From Candidatus Poribacteria bacterium (lineage in GTDB: Bacteria; Poribacteria; WGA-4E; WGA-3G), in the NCBI GenBank assembly GCA_965205015.1, contig OZ242029.1:5440001-5504000 (forward strand): 64,000 nucleotides of DNA. The letters are read 5' to 3'. The position numbers and the translations under genes are program-made. This document shows positions 54,166 to 60,823 of this stretch, in pieces (positions within the stretch are counted from its first letter, which is position 1; each line of letters begins with the position of its first letter). The notes under the pieces are model-generated. The model was not told the DNA's origin. It saw only the letters and a list, made by a program, of their open reading frames with translations, and did not search any database.

Positions 54166-54470
54166 TTTTAATTATTCCTTGCGGTAAAATGACGTGAACT
54201 CTATCTTTGGCGCGCCTTTCTGAAATCCGCCTGCGTGTTTTTGCTTGGGCGTTTCTGCTTGGTGTCTTTGCTTGGTGTCTTTGCTTGGGTGTTTCTGTGT
54301 ATTTCTGCGTGTTTCTGCGTATTGTTGCAGGCTACAAAATATACAATTACTTGGAGATTTAAAATAAAATAAGTTTCAAACCCGTTAGCACGTAATGAAA
54401 TGGAGTGCGGATTTAAGGAACGCCGCAATCGTCTAAACGACTGTTATTTCTCCGCAAGGTAAAATTAAAA
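54166..54470. mobile_element. MITE-like element family 2 (about 305 bp) with internal degenerate tandem repeats
   Basis: Inverted termini TTTTAATTATTCCTTGCGG / CCGCAAGGTAAAATTAAAA; internal 10-14 nt GTGTYTYTGCTTGG / GTGTTTCTGC units at 54232-54322. Confidence 0.65.
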
Positions 54471-55031
54471 GCGAATTTGAAGGAGCGGCAGCGCGAAACC
54501 GACAGACGGCTCATTTGCCCACCCGTTGAGTCCTTTATTCATCGAGTCCTGCAGCGACCTATTCCTATATGTCGCTACATACGGGTCCGTTTCGGACAAC
54601 CGTGTCAGAGGTCCTTCCACGGGATCCTCATCCTCAGGCGATGGCGGTGTTTGGGGTTCCGGCACACGCGGTGCGGATCGGTCAACATTACGCGTATGCA
54701 ACCAATCCCATACCCCAATAAACAGAGACAATGAAACAGCCCCGATGCCAATTATACGATAGTCCTGTGTGGATAACTCAGGTGCGAATTTATTTTCACG
54801 CAACATTTTTACCACACGCATTATTCCGTAACTGTGAATCGCCGTGAACGGGATGGAACTCAAAGTAATGATCTCAAACCGTCGCAAAGCACTTTCGCTA
54901 TATTCCTCTGAGTGCGTATGTCCTGCCTCCGATTCGGGAGCTTCGGAGTGAACTTGGGCTTTTGCATGTGGGATCCCTAAGGCAAGAAAAATTAGGCTAA
55001 ACAAGAATAATCGAACGCTCAATTTATACAT
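54465..55031 (-). CDS. Hypothetical exported/membrane protein
   Basis: Signal peptide AKA-Q, ESALRRFEI motif, 2 TM-like segments. Confidence 0.7.
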   Translation of the reverse strand: MYKLSVRLFLFSLIFLALGIPHAKAQVHSEAPESEAGHTHSEEYSESALRRFEIITLSSIPFTAIHSYGIMRVVKMLRENKFAPELSTQDYRIIGIGAVSLSLFIGVWDWLHTRNVDRSAPRVPEPQTPPSPEDEDPVEGPLTRLSETDPYVATYRNRSLQDSMNKGLNGWANEPSVGFALPLLQIRF

Positions 55032-55090
55032 GGATTATTTTCCCTGACGATTGGAACACGTCTGAACTATGATTTACATGAAAATCCTGG

Positions 55091-55603
55091 TCAAGTTTCT
55101 TGGTGTTGATCTCGGTTTTGAAACAGGTAAACAATTAACATCCCCGCTCCAATACAGACAGAAATATCCGCAATGTTAAAGGTCGGCCAAAAGAGTCCTT
55201 TGTCAACTATACCAAATTGCAGGAAATCGACGACCTCACCCAAATAGAGACGATCCATGAAGTTTCCAACAGCACCCCCGAGTAGAAAACCGAGAGCGAC
55301 TTGCATCCAACGGCTCTCCCTGAATCGAAGATAATAAGCGAAAATGAAGACTAAAGCGATAATAGTAATGAGAATCAGTAAGACCCTGTGTCCAGCCAGT
55401 ACACCAAAAGCGGCGCCTGTATTTCTATCGTGCCGAAGGTTAAAAAAGCCGGGAATAATCGGAATGACCTCAGTAACCTGAGCGATATGGTTCTGCACCA
55501 GCCATTTACTCACCCAATCTACTATCAACACTGGAATCGCCACACCGATTAAGGGTAGAAGCGTCTGCCAGGTATTTTTTTTAGGACCCTGCATCGTGGG
55601 CAT
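55091..55603 (-). CDS. lspA: Lipoprotein signal peptidase II
   Basis: NTGAAFG, GAVGNFMDR, VVDF, FNIAD; start uncertain (55603 or 55594). Confidence 0.95.
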   Translation of the reverse strand: MPTMQGPKKNTWQTLLPLIGVAIPVLIVDWVSKWLVQNHIAQVTEVIPIIPGFFNLRHDRNTGAAFGVLAGHRVLLILITIIALVFIFAYYLRFRESRWMQVALGFLLGGAVGNFMDRLYLGEVVDFLQFGIVDKGLFWPTFNIADISVCIGAGMLIVYLFQNRDQHQET

Positions 55604-58313
55604 TCTTAAGCACCTCCCATTCCGCTTTTGCATCATCCGTGTCCATATCGGAAACATGCAGCGTTTGCTCGATAATAGATGAGGACAGGTCCCAATTACT
55701 GTGAAAAATGCTATGATTCCCCATTATCCCCGCTGTAGAAATGAGATGATAGAAATGTTCCGCCAAAAAAGGCGTCAAGGGTGCCAACCGTTGCAGGAGC
55801 ACAGTCGAGATGAGTGACAGGATACCTTGCGGTACGTGTCGGATCGTATCAGGACGTGATTCCATGACCCCGACATAAAAACGTAGATCGTCTTCGCAAA
55901 AATCGGTTAATAGGGTCCACATTTCATGAAAATTCCCATCTTGGTAAGCCTGCCGTATATCCTGTAAAAGTCGAGAGGTAGCGATTATCGCCAACGAATC
56001 AATCGGAAGAATTTCATCAAGCGTAACGGAATTCGCGCTTTCCATCTTCCGTGCCTCCAGATTCGTAAGGGTTTGTGTATGAGGGGTCTCCGTCTCAACA
56101 CCGCGCTTGTGGCTCTGTCTTTCGTTGGGGCGTTCCTCCTGCGATACATCTTTCGACGCTGCTTTGTTTCTACCTTCAGAAGCCGTCGCAAAATGGTAGA
56201 GACAATTACTAATATTCTCTAAGAGTTGCTGCAATTGCTGATATTGAACAAGATAGTCCGCTGCGAGTTTATGAAGATGCTTCGGATTGACCTGTGTTCC
56301 GACATTAGGCGTTATTGCCACCAAACGTGCTACATCAGCTGGATATTTTTTCAGAAATGCGTCTTCTACCTGTATTTCCCGACCAACGTTCGGCATCGTG
56401 TTAAGCTTGAGTTGCTTAAAAGGTTGGCTTTCTTTAATTGGACGGCTTCTGCTAAGCGATGCGGAGATAACACTGATCTCAGCTAACCATTTTGTCCATT
56501 TTGAATCCGTTGTGTCCGTTTGCGGTACAAACATAACACTGGTGTGCCCACCGATCGGTTTCTTGAAATCAGAATTGTCAATGATCTGAAGTAGATTGGC
56601 AAAATGGCTATCAATGAGCGTAGCTTCTTTGCGAAAGTCACTTGAATTACAGTTTAAACACCGTGTATCGACAGGTAAAAGTTCCTCAACGCTCAATCGG
56701 AACCAGAATTCAAATCCTCGTTGTATAGAATTCCGGATTGCATTGAGGGTATTTTTATCAGTAAGAGGTTCATCACACTGGTCACACAGAAGGATTGGAA
56801 GTGGCATTCCCCATTGACGCTGTGCTGAAACCTGCAAATCTTCAAAATTGCGGACAATGTCTTGGACTTCCCGAATACCTTTATGATCCGTGTCCCCGTA
56901 ATTATCCCAGTATTCTTGGGCGTTGAGGAGCTGGGTAGTGGCGCGGTTCTCAGAGATAGAGAACACCCATTTTGAACAGGGACGGAACACAGCCAATGCT
57001 GTACAGCGCGGACAGTGCGGCTCATGCATTTCGACTTTTTGTGTTTCAAGGAGATAACCGCATTTCTCCAATTGTGGAACAATAAATTTCTCAGCATCAG
57101 ACAGATACAAACCGCACAATTGCCCAGCTTCCTCGGTAAACCTTCCGGTTTCATCAAAAACAGGCATCGCATTCATTTCTAACGCTTGGGCGATGTTGTA
57201 ACTCGGCAGATGATGTGCCGGATTTAAGGGCATAACACCGGATTTTAAGGAAGATAGCGATTTATCGCGGATAACGTCTGTCGCTACAGTCTCAGGAATG
57301 AGTGTAATCTCTAAATCTTTTGACGGAAACAGTGGATGCGCCACAGCGCATTGGGCGAGTTCAGCGGCTTTGATTTCTTTGACAGGTTCCGGTTTGGATT
57401 GTCCTTTTGGAAGGTGCTTGGTAAAGTGTTCGAGCTGCGGTTCCGCAAAAAGTAGGTAGTCGTCTTGCCATTGGGTGAGCCAATAGGTCGTATCGTTGGT
57501 AATTCCGAGTTTAACGATTCCGGCTATTTCCGAAAGGTGCGACATTTGGAGACAGAAAAAGACATTAACGCCAAATTCCTCTAACCCGACATCGAACGGA
57601 AACTTTACGTAGCCATTCAAGGTATGCATGGGTATTTGCATGAGATTCGCTTCATGGATCGGGACGGTGCAATTGGGGCACCATGGACTCAGCTGCGGCA
57701 AGTCATGCAGATAGTCAGAATCGCGAAGTCGACTAATGAGTGCAATAAGCCGGGCTTCCTGTCGTGATTCGAGGGTTTTCTGTGAAGTATCCCAATCCGC
57801 GAAGATGCCAAGTTGATGGAATTTCTGTTTTTGGACTTCTAATTCCTGTTTATGTCGTGCGCGACATCGCTTCCGGAGGACAGATAACTTGATTGGCGTT
57901 TTAGACTTGGCAGCCTCAATCACGTCTTCCTCAATCCAAAGGGGATAGGTCTCCCAGGCAGGCACGTATGTAACGTGATTTCCTTGCATTATTTCTGCTT
58001 TAAGGAAGATATCCTGACAAACTTTTCTACAAAGGGTGTTAAGAGTGAGGGCATCAACGGAGGTGGGCATCTCGCGCAGGACATAGGTTTTTGTCTGGGA
58101 GGAGTGACGGGGCTGCGCAGCATTTGCCTTGACTCCGTTACGGTCTACAGTCCCAGATTTTTTGCTCGCGAGTGGGTATACATTCGCGTTCTGCCAAATT
58201 TCCAGAACGGCGTTCTCTTGTTCGCGGTCCGTCAACTGAGGTTTCTCTTTCGGTTTCGTGGATTTACCGCGTTTACGCGTCGCGCTTTTTGTGGTGGAAT
58301 TTCGTTTTCTCAT
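55581..58313 (-). CDS. Isoleucyl-tRNA synthetase homologue with degenerate catalytic motifs
   Basis: IleRS-colinear remnants (YVPAW, LGIFADW, YVKFP, HPL, QRQWGMPLP, YPADVARL, LAPLTPFLAE) but no HIGH or KMSKS; start may be 58313 or 58421. Confidence 0.8.
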   Translation of the reverse strand: MRKRNSTTKSATRKRGKSTKPKEKPQLTDREQENAVLEIWQNANVYPLASKKSGTVDRNGVKANAAQPRHSSQTKTYVLREMPTSVDALTLNTLCRKVCQDIFLKAEIMQGNHVTYVPAWETYPLWIEEDVIEAAKSKTPIKLSVLRKRCRARHKQELEVQKQKFHQLGIFADWDTSQKTLESRQEARLIALISRLRDSDYLHDLPQLSPWCPNCTVPIHEANLMQIPMHTLNGYVKFPFDVGLEEFGVNVFFCLQMSHLSEIAGIVKLGITNDTTYWLTQWQDDYLLFAEPQLEHFTKHLPKGQSKPEPVKEIKAAELAQCAVAHPLFPSKDLEITLIPETVATDVIRDKSLSSLKSGVMPLNPAHHLPSYNIAQALEMNAMPVFDETGRFTEEAGQLCGLYLSDAEKFIVPQLEKCGYLLETQKVEMHEPHCPRCTALAVFRPCSKWVFSISENRATTQLLNAQEYWDNYGDTDHKGIREVQDIVRNFEDLQVSAQRQWGMPLPILLCDQCDEPLTDKNTLNAIRNSIQRGFEFWFRLSVEELLPVDTRCLNCNSSDFRKEATLIDSHFANLLQIIDNSDFKKPIGGHTSVMFVPQTDTTDSKWTKWLAEISVISASLSRSRPIKESQPFKQLKLNTMPNVGREIQVEDAFLKKYPADVARLVAITPNVGTQVNPKHLHKLAADYLVQYQQLQQLLENISNCLYHFATASEGRNKAASKDVSQEERPNERQSHKRGVETETPHTQTLTNLEARKMESANSVTLDEILPIDSLAIIATSRLLQDIRQAYQDGNFHEMWTLLTDFCEDDLRFYVGVMESRPDTIRHVPQGILSLISTVLLQRLAPLTPFLAEHFYHLISTAGIMGNHSIFHSNWDLSSSIIEQTLHVSDMDTDDAKAEWEVLKNAHDAGS

Positions 58314-58417
58314 ATTTTTCGTATTCGTAAACGGATTACTGATGAGGTTATACTTTCTCGCCCGCGCTGCCTCCTTGTGCATTCCTCTATCAAACAGATT
58401 GGCATCGCCACCCTCTA

Positions 58418-58681
58418 TCACCAGATCGCACGTGCCAAAAATTGTAACAGAAGGATCAGCACAAAAGGTGAAATGTCAATACCAAAATTCCGAGTCACTG
58501 GTCCGAGGGCATTCCGAATCGGATTTAAAACTGGATCTACAAGGCGACTTGTCCACCAATAGAGTTGCCTAACGACTGCGTTCTGCGTGCCAAAAACAAA
58601 CCAAGAAAGTATAGCATTCGCGAGAACCACTATTGTATAAATTTCAAGCAGCTCACTGATAAATCGAGCGAACATATCCAT
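58418..58681 (-). CDS. yggT: YggT family membrane protein
   Basis: ILSW...LVDPVLNPIR...GIDISP. Confidence 0.9.
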   Translation of the reverse strand: MDMFARFISELLEIYTIVVLANAILSWFVFGTQNAVVRQLYWWTSRLVDPVLNPIRNALGPVTRNFGIDISPFVLILLLQFLARAIW

Positions 58682-58709
58682 TATTCCCTACAAGCCTTTC
58701 ACAAACTGA

Positions 58710-59510
58710 TTACGTGTTCCCAAGTTCCTTTGCTCGCTCCGTTGCAGCGAGGATGGCTTCTGTAAGCGTTGCTCGTAAACCCCCTCGTTCTAAAGCGTGT
58801 AGTCCGGCGGCGGTTGTCCCACCGGGTGTGGTAACACGGTTCTTGAGCACAGCGGGGTGTTCCTGCGTTTCAACTAACATGGTAGCTGCGCCTAAAACGG
58901 TATGGGTGGCAAGTTGCTGCGCATCTGCACGAGGTAAACCGACCTGGACCCCTGCATCTGCTAACGCCTCGACGAAGAGCGCAACATAGGCAGGACCACT
59001 CCCACTGACCGCCGTGACAGCATCAAGATGCCGTTCATCCATCACTAAAGAGGTACCACACGCGTCGAAAATTTGTTGTGCTATTTCAAGATGCTCCTGA
59101 TTCGCTGCCCTGCCAGCCGTGAGTACCGAGATCGCAGCGCCCACCGATGCTGAAATATTTGGCATCACCCGAATGACGGGGGGCGCGTTGTCAAAGTAGG
59201 ATTCAAGCGTTGTGGTGGTAACACCCGCTGCGATGCTAATGAGCCATTGCGGTGATGACAAGGCGCGTGCAATCTGTGGCAAGACGTGTGGAACCGCCGG
59301 AGGCGTGACAGCACAGAGAATAATTTGGGTATTTTCTACCAAGACCGCGATATCGCTTGCCCTGTGCGTCCCTTTTTCATCGCAAAGCTGCCGGACAAGG
59401 GTATCATCCAGGTCCGCAACCCAGATGTGTTTCGCAGGAAATACCGTGTCAGCGATACTTCGGACGATAATGCCGCCCATCTTTCCAACGCCTATTACAC
59501 CTAACTCCAT
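58710..59510 (-). CDS. proC: Pyrroline-5-carboxylate reductase
   Basis: GVGKMG, SIAAG, RVMPN, SGSGPAY, VTTPGGTT. Confidence 0.95.
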   Translation of the reverse strand: MELGVIGVGKMGGIIVRSIADTVFPAKHIWVADLDDTLVRQLCDEKGTHRASDIAVLVENTQIILCAVTPPAVPHVLPQIARALSSPQWLISIAAGVTTTTLESYFDNAPPVIRVMPNISASVGAAISVLTAGRAANQEHLEIAQQIFDACGTSLVMDERHLDAVTAVSGSGPAYVALFVEALADAGVQVGLPRADAQQLATHTVLGAATMLVETQEHPAVLKNRVTTPGGTTAAGLHALERGGLRATLTEAILAATERAKELGNT

Positions 59511-59561
59511 ATTTTAATTGTTCCTTGCGGTTCGGTCAGGTAGGTTTCGCTCATACTGATG

Positions 59562-60290
59562 CTATTCCTCTGACCCCTCGAAGATCGCCCTGCCGATTCT
59601 CACGAGGTTCGCGCCTTCTTGAACAGCGACCTCAAAGTCGTTTGTCATTCCCATCGAAAGATACTCCATGGTAACGCTGGGAAATTTTTGGATTTCTATT
59701 TTTTCAGCAAGCGATCTCAGCAAAGCGAACGCGGGACGGTTTGCGTCCGGCGAAGGTGTTAACTGCCCCATTGTCATCAATCCAACGATGTGCACTGCGG
59801 GATACGCCTGTGCATCTTCAATAAAGTGAAGCACATCCTCCGCTGCCAATCCGTGTTTACTCGCCTCACGAGTCGTATTGACCTGAATTAAAACATCTGT
59901 TCGTTGTGAGCGTTGTTCAGACCGACGCGCGATCTCTGCGAAAAGCCGCAAACTGTCAACTGAATGAATCAGTGAAAACATTTCCAATGCGGTTTTCACC
60001 TTATTCCTTTGCAAATGTCCAATCAGGTGCCATCGGCATGTTTTATCATCGGAATCAGCACCTGTAGCCTCCACAAAGGCATTGACTGACGCGTACTTCT
60101 GTTGCGCCTCCTGCACCCGGTTTTCCCCGATATCCGTTGCCCCTGCAGCGAGAACCGTCTGAATTTCTGCCACTGAACGCCCTTTCGTAACAGCAACGAG
60201 CGTTATTGAATCGAGTGTACGCTGACGCCGCTCTGCAGCATTGGCAATCCGTTCATTGATCCTGGAAAGATTATCAACAATCGAGTTCAA
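59562..60290 (-). CDS. yggS: PLP homeostasis protein
   Basis: LVAVTK, GENRVQE, WHLIGHLQRNK, GLMTM, LSMGMTND, VRIGRAIF. Confidence 0.95.
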   Translation of the reverse strand: MNSIVDNLSRINERIANAAERRQRTLDSITLVAVTKGRSVAEIQTVLAAGATDIGENRVQEAQQKYASVNAFVEATGADSDDKTCRWHLIGHLQRNKVKTALEMFSLIHSVDSLRLFAEIARRSEQRSQRTDVLIQVNTTREASKHGLAAEDVLHFIEDAQAYPAVHIVGLMTMGQLTPSPDANRPAFALLRSLAEKIEIQKFPSVTMEYLSMGMTNDFEVAVQEGANLVRIGRAIFEGSEE

Positions 60291-60323
60291 TTTTTCAATT
60301 CCACAATTTTTCGATCAAAAATG

Positions 60324-60602
60324 TCAAGCGTCAAGACTGTCTGTTGATGGCGGATCTGGATTTAAAGGCTTACTTGCGTGAAAGAGTATACCAATGACTG
60401 CGACTAAGACGGCTATACTAACAATCCCAATACCAACGGTTATCTTATGCGTTGCCTCCGTATAAACCTGCGTGACTTGCACCGCACTGACGTTTTCGGA
60501 CAAAACTTCCTGATACTTGGAAGGATGGTTTCCGCCTTGTATAACAAAAACAAGTCCGATCAAACCTGTAACGATTGATAACGTCGCAAAGAGCACGCGC
60601 AT
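60324..60602 (-). CDS. Hypothetical 2-TM membrane protein
   Basis: Two hydrophobic helices; co-oriented with neighbours. Confidence 0.6.
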   Translation of the reverse strand: MRVLFATLSIVTGLIGLVFVIQGGNHPSKYQEVLSENVSAVQVTQVYTEATHKITVGIGIVSIAVLVAVIGILFHASKPLNPDPPSTDSLDA

Positions 60603-60823
60603 CTTCAATTCTTCCCGGCACACGCCAAATTGTTGCTTAAGAACGAGTTTAAGAAATCCGCGTCCTAAACAGGTTGGGACATCTAAGGAAAATAACGTTA
60701 CAAATTGTAGTGAGGTTTCGACTGGGGACGATGCTGATACTGCTATTTATTTATTCGCGGGATCTATAATATATATTAATGATACTATATTTTTTCAAGA
60801 AAAGCAAATTTTCCGTCCCAGGA

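Follow-up and report, generated by a model that had tools for sequence, protein, structure and literature searches.

Bacteria generally rely on either ileS1 or ileS2 for their isoleucyl-tRNA synthetase (IleRS), and the coexistence of the two genes has been described as peculiar to the Bacillaceae, apart from a mupirocin producer (Zanki et al., 10.1101/2022.02.09.479832; this and the other published systems are cited throughout from excerpts of the respective works). Outside housekeeping charging, an IleRS homologue is deployed in SB-203208 biosynthesis, namely the IleRS-like aminoacyl transferase SbzA, which keeps the motifs HYGH and AMSKA together with weak charging (PMC12945691), and in the excerpt of a review on the duplication of aminoacyl-tRNA synthetases IleRS2 and SbzA are the only IleRS entries. 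Other synthetases offer cases in which the body is kept for a regulatory or binding role and a paralogue does the charging, such as HisZ, the HisRS-like domain of Gcn2 and the Sulfolobus LeuRS-I (PMC9437257; PMC11363354). Here, we describe a protein of the IleRS1 lineage that parallels these systems, whose gene lies between yggT and lspA in a window of 64,000 nucleotides from a Candidatus Poribacteria bacterium (contig OZ242029.1, positions 5,440,001 to 5,504,000; coordinates below count from the first letter of the window). This protein, hereafter pseudo-IleRS, is best read as a full-length IleRS1 relic that has lost its catalytic and proofreading motifs, and that most members of the sponge-associated Poribacteria keep, under selection, in its ancestral place.

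Pseudo-IleRS is like the IleRS1 enzymes of S. aureus (1ffy/1qu2) and P. megaterium (8c9e) in its descent, fold, domain order, four cysteine pairs of the connective peptide (CP) and slot upstream of lspA. It differs from them in lacking HIGH, KMSKS, the Ile/adenylate blocks and the editing motifs, and scores 201.1 bits on the ileS equivalog model TIGR00392, far below the cut-off of 621.4 bits. Moreover, the window lineage has no C-terminal zinc domain, which the most basal orthologue keeps, and has added a K/R-rich tail, an insert of ~50 residues and a G[LF]Ex[FLY]G loop. As in the Bacillaceae (10.1101/2022.02.09.479832), an IleRS1-lineage gene and an IleRS2 gene occur in one genome; however, both enzymes are active there, whereas in the Poribacteria the IleRS1 copy appears catalytically dead and IleRS2 is the sole intact enzyme. 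SbzA (PMC12945691) also exemplifies the use of an IleRS homologue outside housekeeping charging, but it is IleRS2-like, is encoded in a biosynthetic cluster and retains HYGH and AMSKA, and the poribacterial protein has none of these. The known inactive paralogues differ in being built on class II HisRS or SerRS bodies, and LeuRS-I is listed as still making leucyl-adenylate (PMC9437257). The literature searched, taken without supplements, where the IleRS sets of 10.1101/2023.01.31.526100 and 10.64898/2026.02.03.703510 could include poribacterial sequences, held no description of a dead IleRS or of a poribacterial ileS, and none of a full-length class Ia IleRS under phylum-wide selection despite the loss of every signature.

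The initial annotation of the window, made from its letters alone, had pointed to an uninterrupted open reading frame (ORF) of more than 900 aa, colinear with IleRS, between yggT and lspA. This is borne out: the frame at 55581..58421 on the minus strand runs without an internal stop over 946 aa counted from a GTG, homologues cover 96% of this 946-aa query, and the flanking genes match their Pfam and TIGR00077 families. Of the bounds then given the end stands and the start does not. An ATG in the context M[RK]K..NS, equivalent to window position 58313, is common to the window and 28 of 28 related loci (from a scan of one genome per species, all titled Poribacteria), and the 36 codons upstream of it are not conserved. 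Hence, the gene is taken as 55581..58313 (minus strand), predicted to encode 910 aa, and the upstream extension at 58314..58421 is probably not translated.

Sequence, fold, phylogeny and position agree on an IleRS1 origin, as first proposed. The best sequence matches in the PDB are IleRS1 structures (128.8 bits for 1ffy and ~124 bits for 8c9f/8c9e), with IleRS2 at about 62-64 bits, and the Pfam domains tRNA-synt_1 (6e-23) and Anticodon_1 (8.5e-9) are both recognized. An AlphaFold2 model built on a 73-row alignment has a mean predicted local distance difference test (pLDDT) of 81.8 and a predicted template-modelling (TM) score of 0.80, with low confidence only at residues 1-27, 49-71 and 724-760. 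The structure prediction suggested earlier thus yields an IleRS1 fold: Foldseek places IleRS1 structures first (TM 0.69 for 8c9f/8c9e and 0.70 for 1qu2_A), followed by IleRS2 at 0.62-0.64, and a look-up in the ESM Atlas gave generic class I synthetase clusters only. In a quick maximum-likelihood tree of 54 chosen rows (23 fully degenerate and 6 partly degenerate proteins, 22 canonical IleRS1 and, as outgroup, 3 poribacterial IleRS2), all 23 fully degenerate rows form one clade inside IleRS1, with a Shimodaira-Hasegawa-like approximate likelihood-ratio support of 100. Together, these observations indicate that pseudo-IleRS descends from the ancestral IleRS1 of the Poribacteria and still sits in the old yggS-proC-yggT-ileS-lspA-fmt row.

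The initial annotation held that each functional motif is replaced, and all the replacements it listed are seen in alignments to IleRS1. The motif columns were read against the canonical IleRS1 proteins P0153, P0155, P0161 and P0147; the motif names are those in common use and in the initial annotation, and the columns of the Ile/adenylate blocks were taken from P0153 and P0155. The HIGH region reads LREMPTSVDALTLNT, or LREMPT-SVDALTLNT in the alignment, with ALTLNT in the place of HxGH, and the signature is absent from the 14 divergent orthologues considered below and from 16 aligned family proteins; GWDxHGLP, DVWFDSG, EGxDQ and KMSKS are likewise found in none of these 14 orthologues. The final Asp of the second editing motif is Ser in the crown clade and still Asp in several deep lineages. 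More generally, 104 columns are at least 90% conserved in the 22 canonical IleRS1 proteins, and at 35 of these fewer than 30% of 23 family members retain the residue. Residues lining the pocket are among the 35 lost columns, which include the equivalents of G82, G119, H123, G124, W570, Q600, R607, G608, H638 and G639. The equivalent of the Asp that holds the amino group varies between E, D, N and Q, and the pocket aromatics W120, F571 and W609 are retained.

Against this background of loss, the four cysteine pairs noted earlier are still there and vary hardly at all across the 73 rows of alignment A1 (C212/C215, C434/C437, C510/C513 and C552/C555 in the numbering of the 910-aa protein). As a side observation, two orthologues of 787 and 770 aa (L049 and L050, from genomes G057 and G068) have lost the first two pairs, which read CDKRN and CKISK, and kept the third and fourth, so that the first zinc knuckle is not universally required. 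The window protein ends ~100 reference residues short of the IleRS1 C-terminus and therefore has no C-terminal zinc-binding anticodon domain, as had been surmised; the basal orthologue L041 keeps this domain with its CxxC...CxxC pattern. The added K/R-rich N-terminus is real as a tail of residues 1-26, but it belongs to the crown clade only, and the first 36 codons of the original frame are unconserved. Even in that clade it is present in two of the three orthologues shown (L051 and L052), with L053 having only 5 K+R in its first 30 residues; it is absent from the deeper lineages, and L041 has a canonical IleRS1 N-terminus. Similarly, the insert is lineage-specific, with 80% gaps at residues 721-750 in divergent members. 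In addition to these terminal and internal changes, the family has positions that are conserved within the clade and divergent from IleRS1, namely a cluster G243-L244-E245-x-x-G248 together with R184, R527, C400, P445, P848 and F870. The cluster defines the motif G[LF]Ex[FLY]G. All 148 family members checked have this motif (120 close homologues, 14 divergent representatives and 14 divergent orthologues from genomes), and it occurs in the equivalent region of none of 28 canonical or partly degenerate IleRS1 proteins.

The gene is not a pseudogene and is under purifying selection. Its frame is open in all 28 related loci, and Nei-Gojobori ratios of nonsynonymous to synonymous divergence (dN/dS) computed on 29 sequences (306 of 406 pairs used, with dS of 0.05-1.5) have a median of 0.147 and a range of 0.108-0.311; pairs of deep lineages give 0.15-0.34, some with saturated dS. 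This answers the call of the initial annotation for dN/dS on orthologues upstream of lspA, and the pattern it had named as speaking for an ordinary pseudogene, frameshifts and a dN/dS near 1, was seen neither in the 28 loci nor in 14 deep ones. Constraint is weaker than on a working synthetase: over the same pairs of closed genomes dN/dS is 0.040-0.080 for IleRS2 vs 0.12-0.19 for pseudo-IleRS, and over the same genome pairs nonsynonymous change is 1.5-3.6 times that of IleRS2. Pooled over 12 sister pairs, it is also unevenly distributed: the regional ratios are 0.109 for Rossmann-N, 0.154 for CP1, 0.084 for the CP core, which holds the second zinc site, and 0.148 for Rossmann-C, vs 0.421 for the anticodon-binding domain, 0.427 for the helices that come after Rossmann-C, 0.587 for the insert and 0.404 for the K/R tail. 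Within the same genomes body and anticodon domain are at 0.043 and 0.062 in IleRS2 and at 0.086 and 0.309 in pseudo-IleRS. The helices of the anticodon domain, whose survival had been remarked upon, thus persist as a fold and are among the least constrained parts of the protein, evolving about four times more freely than Rossmann-N (0.42 vs 0.11), which weakens the earlier hint that they serve in tRNA binding. Because constraint is concentrated in the former catalytic body and relaxed in the anticodon domain, the retained job appears to depend on the former and not on anticodon reading.

That a working IleRS, perhaps an IleRS2, would be encoded elsewhere was also proposed from the window, and relatives bear this out. 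In five of five closed poribacterial chromosomes found via the related loci, a canonical ileS scoring 963-976 bits on TIGR00392 lies far from the pseudo-IleRS gene, and of 120 genomes sampled from the phylum 118 carry an ileS above the cut-off, the two others (G014 and G122) still having the pseudo-IleRS gene; by the same model the pseudo-IleRS orthologues of closed genomes score 163-168 bits and the basal one in G007 445.5 bits. The canonical protein (e.g., L032:1441-4632 in G001; L029-L033) has 1048 aa from a conserved MF[GEK]EVS start, carries KMSKS, WTTTPWT and DCWFDSG, has GVHH in place of HxGH, and finds its best PDB matches in the IleRS2 chains 8c8w/8c8u (1032 bits for 8c8w vs 357 for the IleRS1 8c9f). 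A tblastn search of the window with the G001 IleRS2 matches the pseudo-IleRS gene only, at 21.6% identity. Thus, isoleucine is most likely charged by an IleRS2 with a natural GVHH, encoded outside the window. GVHH is a natural non-canonical IleRS2 motif linked to mupirocin hyper-resistance, and no product was obtained from two IleRS1 enzymes mutated to GXHH (Brkic et al., 10.1101/2023.01.31.526100). That the poribacterial enzymes carry this resistance-linked motif hints at an inhibitor of IleRS in the habitat that gave IleRS2 the advantage in replacing IleRS1. We also observed a second canonical IleRS form in 27 of the 120 genomes (G008, G012, G015, G016, G020, G023, G025 and others), with frames of 1120-1194 aa. 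Its TIGR00392 match is split, with 541-562 bits for the best stretch and 671-699 with neighbouring stretches, which suggests an insertion near the N-terminus.

Pseudo-IleRS is widespread and old within the phylum. More than 120 full-length homologues with 62-99% identity are labelled by their sources as Candidatus Poribacteria "class I tRNA ligase family protein" or "hypothetical protein", and relatives go under "isoleucyl-tRNA synthetase" in some sources. Searching with the 910-aa protein (E <=1e-20) recovers an orthologue in 105 of the 120 sampled genomes at 85-25% identity: 45 at 60-85%, 4 at 51-57%, 32 at 43-46%, 15 at 34-36%, 2 at 30% and 7 at 25-29%. An exhaustive search of representative proteins gave the same gradient, from 69% to ~25% identity, after which come ordinary IleRS1 proteins, and the named members of the divergent clusters are Poribacteria and one metagenome-assembled genome (MAG) labelled Deltaproteobacteria. 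In 14 of 14 divergent loci an IleRS-like ORF of 708-944 aa lies directly upstream of lspA, in 9 of these yggT is directly upstream of it, and 12 of the 14 orthologues keep all four cysteine pairs. L041, the most basal member, has 931 aa, scores 445 bits on TIGR00392 and retains a partial WIGTPWT; all other members have lost the editing signatures as well as the synthetic ones. As L041 lacks the synthetic motifs and keeps the canonical N-terminus and the C-terminal domain, loss of the synthetic-site motifs appears to have come first and the shedding of domains later. Two further observations pertain to this survey. In the closed genome G039 the match is split between C1:19-990 and 6470570-6471367, at both ends of the record, consistent with a gene that spans the arbitrary start of a circular sequence. 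Separately, partly degenerate IleRS1-type proteins occur in other phyla (P0141, P0150, P0152, P0157, P0159 and P0160, also P0143, P0154 and P0158), with source labels of Bacillota, Hydrothermota, Armatimonadota, Atribacterota and Planctomycetota MAGs; examples have HLGQ or ILPV for HIGH, KMSKS lost or turned into xMHKS, and DVWFDSG kept. These are scattered among normal IleRS1 in the tree, which points to independent events.

Taking these observations together, we consider it very likely that pseudo-IleRS is dead as a synthetase and has been retained and repurposed, and probable that a repurposed dead IleRS1 with a non-synthetase job in a binding role is the best overall explanation. An acquired IleRS2 would have taken over charging, after which the resident IleRS1 copy would no longer make Ile-tRNA or proofread; since this dead copy is under purifying selection, it would have been kept as a folded zinc-knuckle protein with a second, non-synthetase job. 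Its body of Rossmann fold, CP1 and CP core may then act as a non-catalytic binding surface for an RNA, for instance the acceptor arm of a tRNA, or for a protein partner. The gained G[LF]Ex[FLY]G loop, common to all members, would lie at the entrance of the former editing domain, the disordered K/R-rich tail may assist binding in the crown clade, and the anticodon would not be read. The pattern of constraint, the zinc knuckles, the gained loop and the basic tail fit a non-catalytic binding protein, and the features typical of a synthetase-derived pseudoenzyme are all seen: a retained fold, lost catalytic residues, purifying selection and, in relatives, an active paralogue. The earlier suggestion that selective catalytic loss fits repurposing better than neutral decay is sustained by the median dN/dS of 0.147, the 28 open frames and the phylum-wide position before lspA. 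RNA binding as the specific mechanism is offered as a tentative prediction.

Several observations weigh against this interpretation or limit it. There is no pseudo-IleRS match in 15 of the 120 genomes, 12 of which are among the 27 with the longer IleRS form, and clean deletion occurs only among these (12 of 27). In five of five closed genomes without a match, lspA, the 188-aa ORF and fmt come straight after yggS-proC-yggT, and tblastn found no pseudo-IleRS remnant in the yggT-lspA gap of these five (78-552 nt). The gene is therefore dispensable in at least one subclade, and its job is accessory rather than essential. The IleRS2 of the window organism is itself inferred from relatives of at most 85% identity. 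Most family-conserved positions are likewise conserved among active IleRS1 proteins, so that the need for a stable fold alone could explain much of the constraint. RNA binding in particular is opposed by the relaxed anticodon domain and the lost IleRS1 zinc-binding domain, and by the clade-specific nature of the basic tail, with its dN/dS of 0.40. Finally, the single clade of degenerate proteins could have been helped by long-branch attraction, given the quick tree method and its long-branch warnings; a single origin is favoured by the gene position and the motif that these proteins have in common.

Other explanations have to be weighed against repurposing as a binding protein. A broader reading would have these proteins found a new family of repurposed class Ia bodies, rebuilt round the gained loop, once a hyper-resistant IleRS2 had taken over charging, into a module that binds ligands, RNA or proteins, or even catalyses, with the partly degenerate IleRS1 of Bacillota, Hydrothermota and Armatimonadota as earlier stages of a recurrent afterlife of displaced synthetases; we deem it rather unlikely. 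The same may be said of a role as protein scaffold or regulator without RNA binding, for instance as a partner of the envelope or division proteins of the row (yggT, lspA). It would account for the conservation of the yggT-lspA position over the whole phylum, the overlap of the pseudo-IleRS stop with the lspA start, the relaxed anticodon domain and the loss of the anticodon-reading zinc domain. However, the adjacency of ileS and lspA is ancestral and widespread as a matter of general knowledge, with no functional link known to us, and the neighbours stay in place where the gene has been deleted, implying that they do not depend on it. 

A new enzyme or a sensor of small ligands (isoleucine or an inhibitor of IleRS, for example), with a pocket rebuilt from the loop, R184, R527 and C400 in the manner of HisZ- or SbzA-type reuse, is a conceivable though doubtful alternative. 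Under it one would understand why the former catalytic body is the most constrained part (dN/dS of 0.08-0.15; 0.086 vs 0.043 in IleRS2), why the gained motif is invariant across the family and why the aromatics W120, F571 and W609 of the pocket are kept. Yet few of the family-specific polar positions are invariant and the equivalent of the amino-group Asp varies; the protein has no ATP-binding signatures, the crown clade has Ser for the editing Asp, there is no biosynthetic cluster nearby, and a subclade has lost the gene. 

The remaining explanations fare much worse. That the frame is kept only for operon architecture, as lspA coupling or promoter spacing, with an irrelevant protein, seems very improbable: the stop does overlap the likely lspA start, with a GGGAGG inside the 3′ end, and the row is on one strand with short gaps, but coupling would call for the last codons alone, whereas constraint at the amino-acid level spans 910 codons and is weakest at the 3′ end, and genomes with the deletion keep lspA directly behind yggT. 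Hardly more credible is a still-working IleRS with an unorthodox active site. It could appeal to the full-length IleRS fold, the zinc knuckles, the anticodon domain and the "isoleucyl-tRNA synthetase" labels that some sources give to relatives; nevertheless, HIGH, KMSKS, GWDxHGLP, DVWFDSG and EGxDQ are absent from every examined member, an intact IleRS2 co-occurs in relatives, and the swap of HIGH to GXHH already abolishes IleRS1 activity (10.1101/2023.01.31.526100). An ordinary pseudogene in neutral decay, open by chance in this genome, for which one could cite the loss of all catalytic motifs, a nonsynonymous divergence 1.5-3.6 times that of IleRS2 and the deletion in one subclade, is scarcely believable in the face of 28 of 28 open frames plus 14 of 14 in deep lineages, a dN/dS of 0.11-0.31, four conserved cysteine pairs, an invariant gained motif and a confident fold model. 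Two narrower roles were also considered and rejected: a mupirocin decoy is unlikely, the residues lining the Ile-AMP/mupirocin site being those lost, and a trans-editing factor as the family-wide role is contradicted by the loss of the Thr-rich motif, save for the partial remnant in L041, and by the lack of conservation of the editing Asp.

The features of the gene and its immediate neighbours are collected in Table 1.

Table 1. Coordinates, in the window, of the pseudo-IleRS gene, its motif remnants and retained or gained features, and its two flanking genes
Feature	Coordinates	Strand	Evidence or remark
lspA (signal peptidase II)	55091..55657	-	Peptidase_A8 1.1e-39; TIGR00077 124.9 bits vs cut-off 73.95
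Pseudo-IleRS gene, IleRS1-derived, predicted 910 aa	55581..58313	-	ATG shared by 28/28 loci; below ileS cut-off; pLDDT 81.8; TM 0.69-0.70
Anticodon-binding helical domain, residues 769-880, including LAPLTPFLAE	55674..56009	-	Anticodon_1 8.5e-9; fold kept, constraint relaxed
Lineage-specific insert, residues 716-768, middle predicted disordered	56010..56168	-	pLDDT <50 for 724-760; dN/dS 0.59
YPADVARL (canonical YGADxLRLW), preceding KMSKS loop deleted	56322..56345	-	Reads KYPADVARL
EGxDQxRGWF remnant (FVPQTDTTDSKWTKWL; FVPQT..KWTKWL)	56484..56531	-	IleRS1 alignments
DVWFDSG remnant (DSHFAN; DSHFANL in alignment)	56595..56612	-	IleRS1 alignments
Fourth Cys pair, CLNC	56649..56660	-	Alignments
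WGxPxP...CxxC block (WGMPLPILLCDQC), third Cys pair	56775..56813	-	Most constrained segment; dN/dS 0.084, residues 441-570
Second Cys pair, CPRC (canonical HCWRC)	57003..57014	-	Alignments
Editing motif GTGxVHxAPxHGxxD remnant (KSGVMPLNPAHHLPS), final Asp = Ser	57201..57245	-	IleRS1 alignments
Editing motif WTTTPWT remnant (QMSHLSE)	57528..57548	-	IleRS1 alignments
Clade-specific motif G[LF]Ex[FLY]G (GLEEFG), residues 243-248	57570..57587	-	Loop before former WTTTPWT strand in model
First Cys pair, CPNC, CP zinc knuckle	57669..57680	-	C212/C215 in >=90% of 73 rows
GWDxHGLPIE remnant (AWETYPLWIE)	57930..57959	-	IleRS1 alignments
GPPYANGxxHIGH remnant (EMPTSVDALTLNT), without histidines	58035..58073	-	IleRS1 alignments
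K/R-rich N-terminal tail, residues 1-26, predicted disordered	58236..58313	-	pLDDT <50 for residues 1-27; dN/dS 0.40
In-frame upstream extension, 36 codons from GTG, probably not translated	58314..58421	-	Not conserved in 28 loci; several with stops just upstream of shared ATG
yggT (YGGT family), upstream neighbour	58418..58681	-	Pfam 1.2e-16

In many bacteria ileS precedes lspA, at the distal end of the classical cluster of division and cell-wall genes. In the window, the genes on this strand follow one another with short gaps in the order YfiH/YlmD-like, 99-aa ORF, YggS-like, proC, yggT, pseudo-IleRS, lspA, 188-aa ORF, fmt, PASTA-domain protein and rpe, and this row contains no biosynthetic cluster. 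The likely start of lspA is an ATG at 55603 (giving 170 aa), behind a GGGAGG at about 55612-55617 that falls within the 3′ end of the pseudo-IleRS gene; the two genes would then overlap, and lspA is probably translationally coupled to pseudo-IleRS. The 188-aa ORF directly downstream of lspA (54465..55031, minus strand) matches no Pfam family and is found in the same place in five other genomes, including ones that have lost pseudo-IleRS, at 36-62% identity. The 99-aa ORF between the YfiH/YlmD-like and YggS-like genes (60324..60623, minus strand) also has no Pfam match, and presumably lies roughly where sepF does in Firmicutes. An Rfam scan of the whole window returned no family at gathering score, hence no T-box or other known leader, and a promoter and terminator scan of 54300..60500 gave no signal above shuffles.

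Synthetase-derived pseudoenzymes are already known, as in HisZ and the HisRS-like domain of Gcn2, and SLIMP is a further catalytically inactive synthetase paralogue. What the poribacterial gene adds would be an in-place record of an acquired IleRS2 displacing the resident IleRS1 in graded stages: the basal member retains the canonical termini and the zinc domain, the crown clade has shed these and gained the tail and the insert, and one subclade has deleted the gene. It thereby qualifies the published view that bacteria have either ileS1 or ileS2, with coexistence confined to the Bacillaceae. On the practical side, the "isoleucyl-tRNA synthetase" labels given to some of these proteins can mislead metabolic reconstructions and marker-gene sets for uncultured sponge symbionts. 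For the family itself, the graded stages may serve as a natural series for asking what use a synthetase body has once its catalysis is gone.

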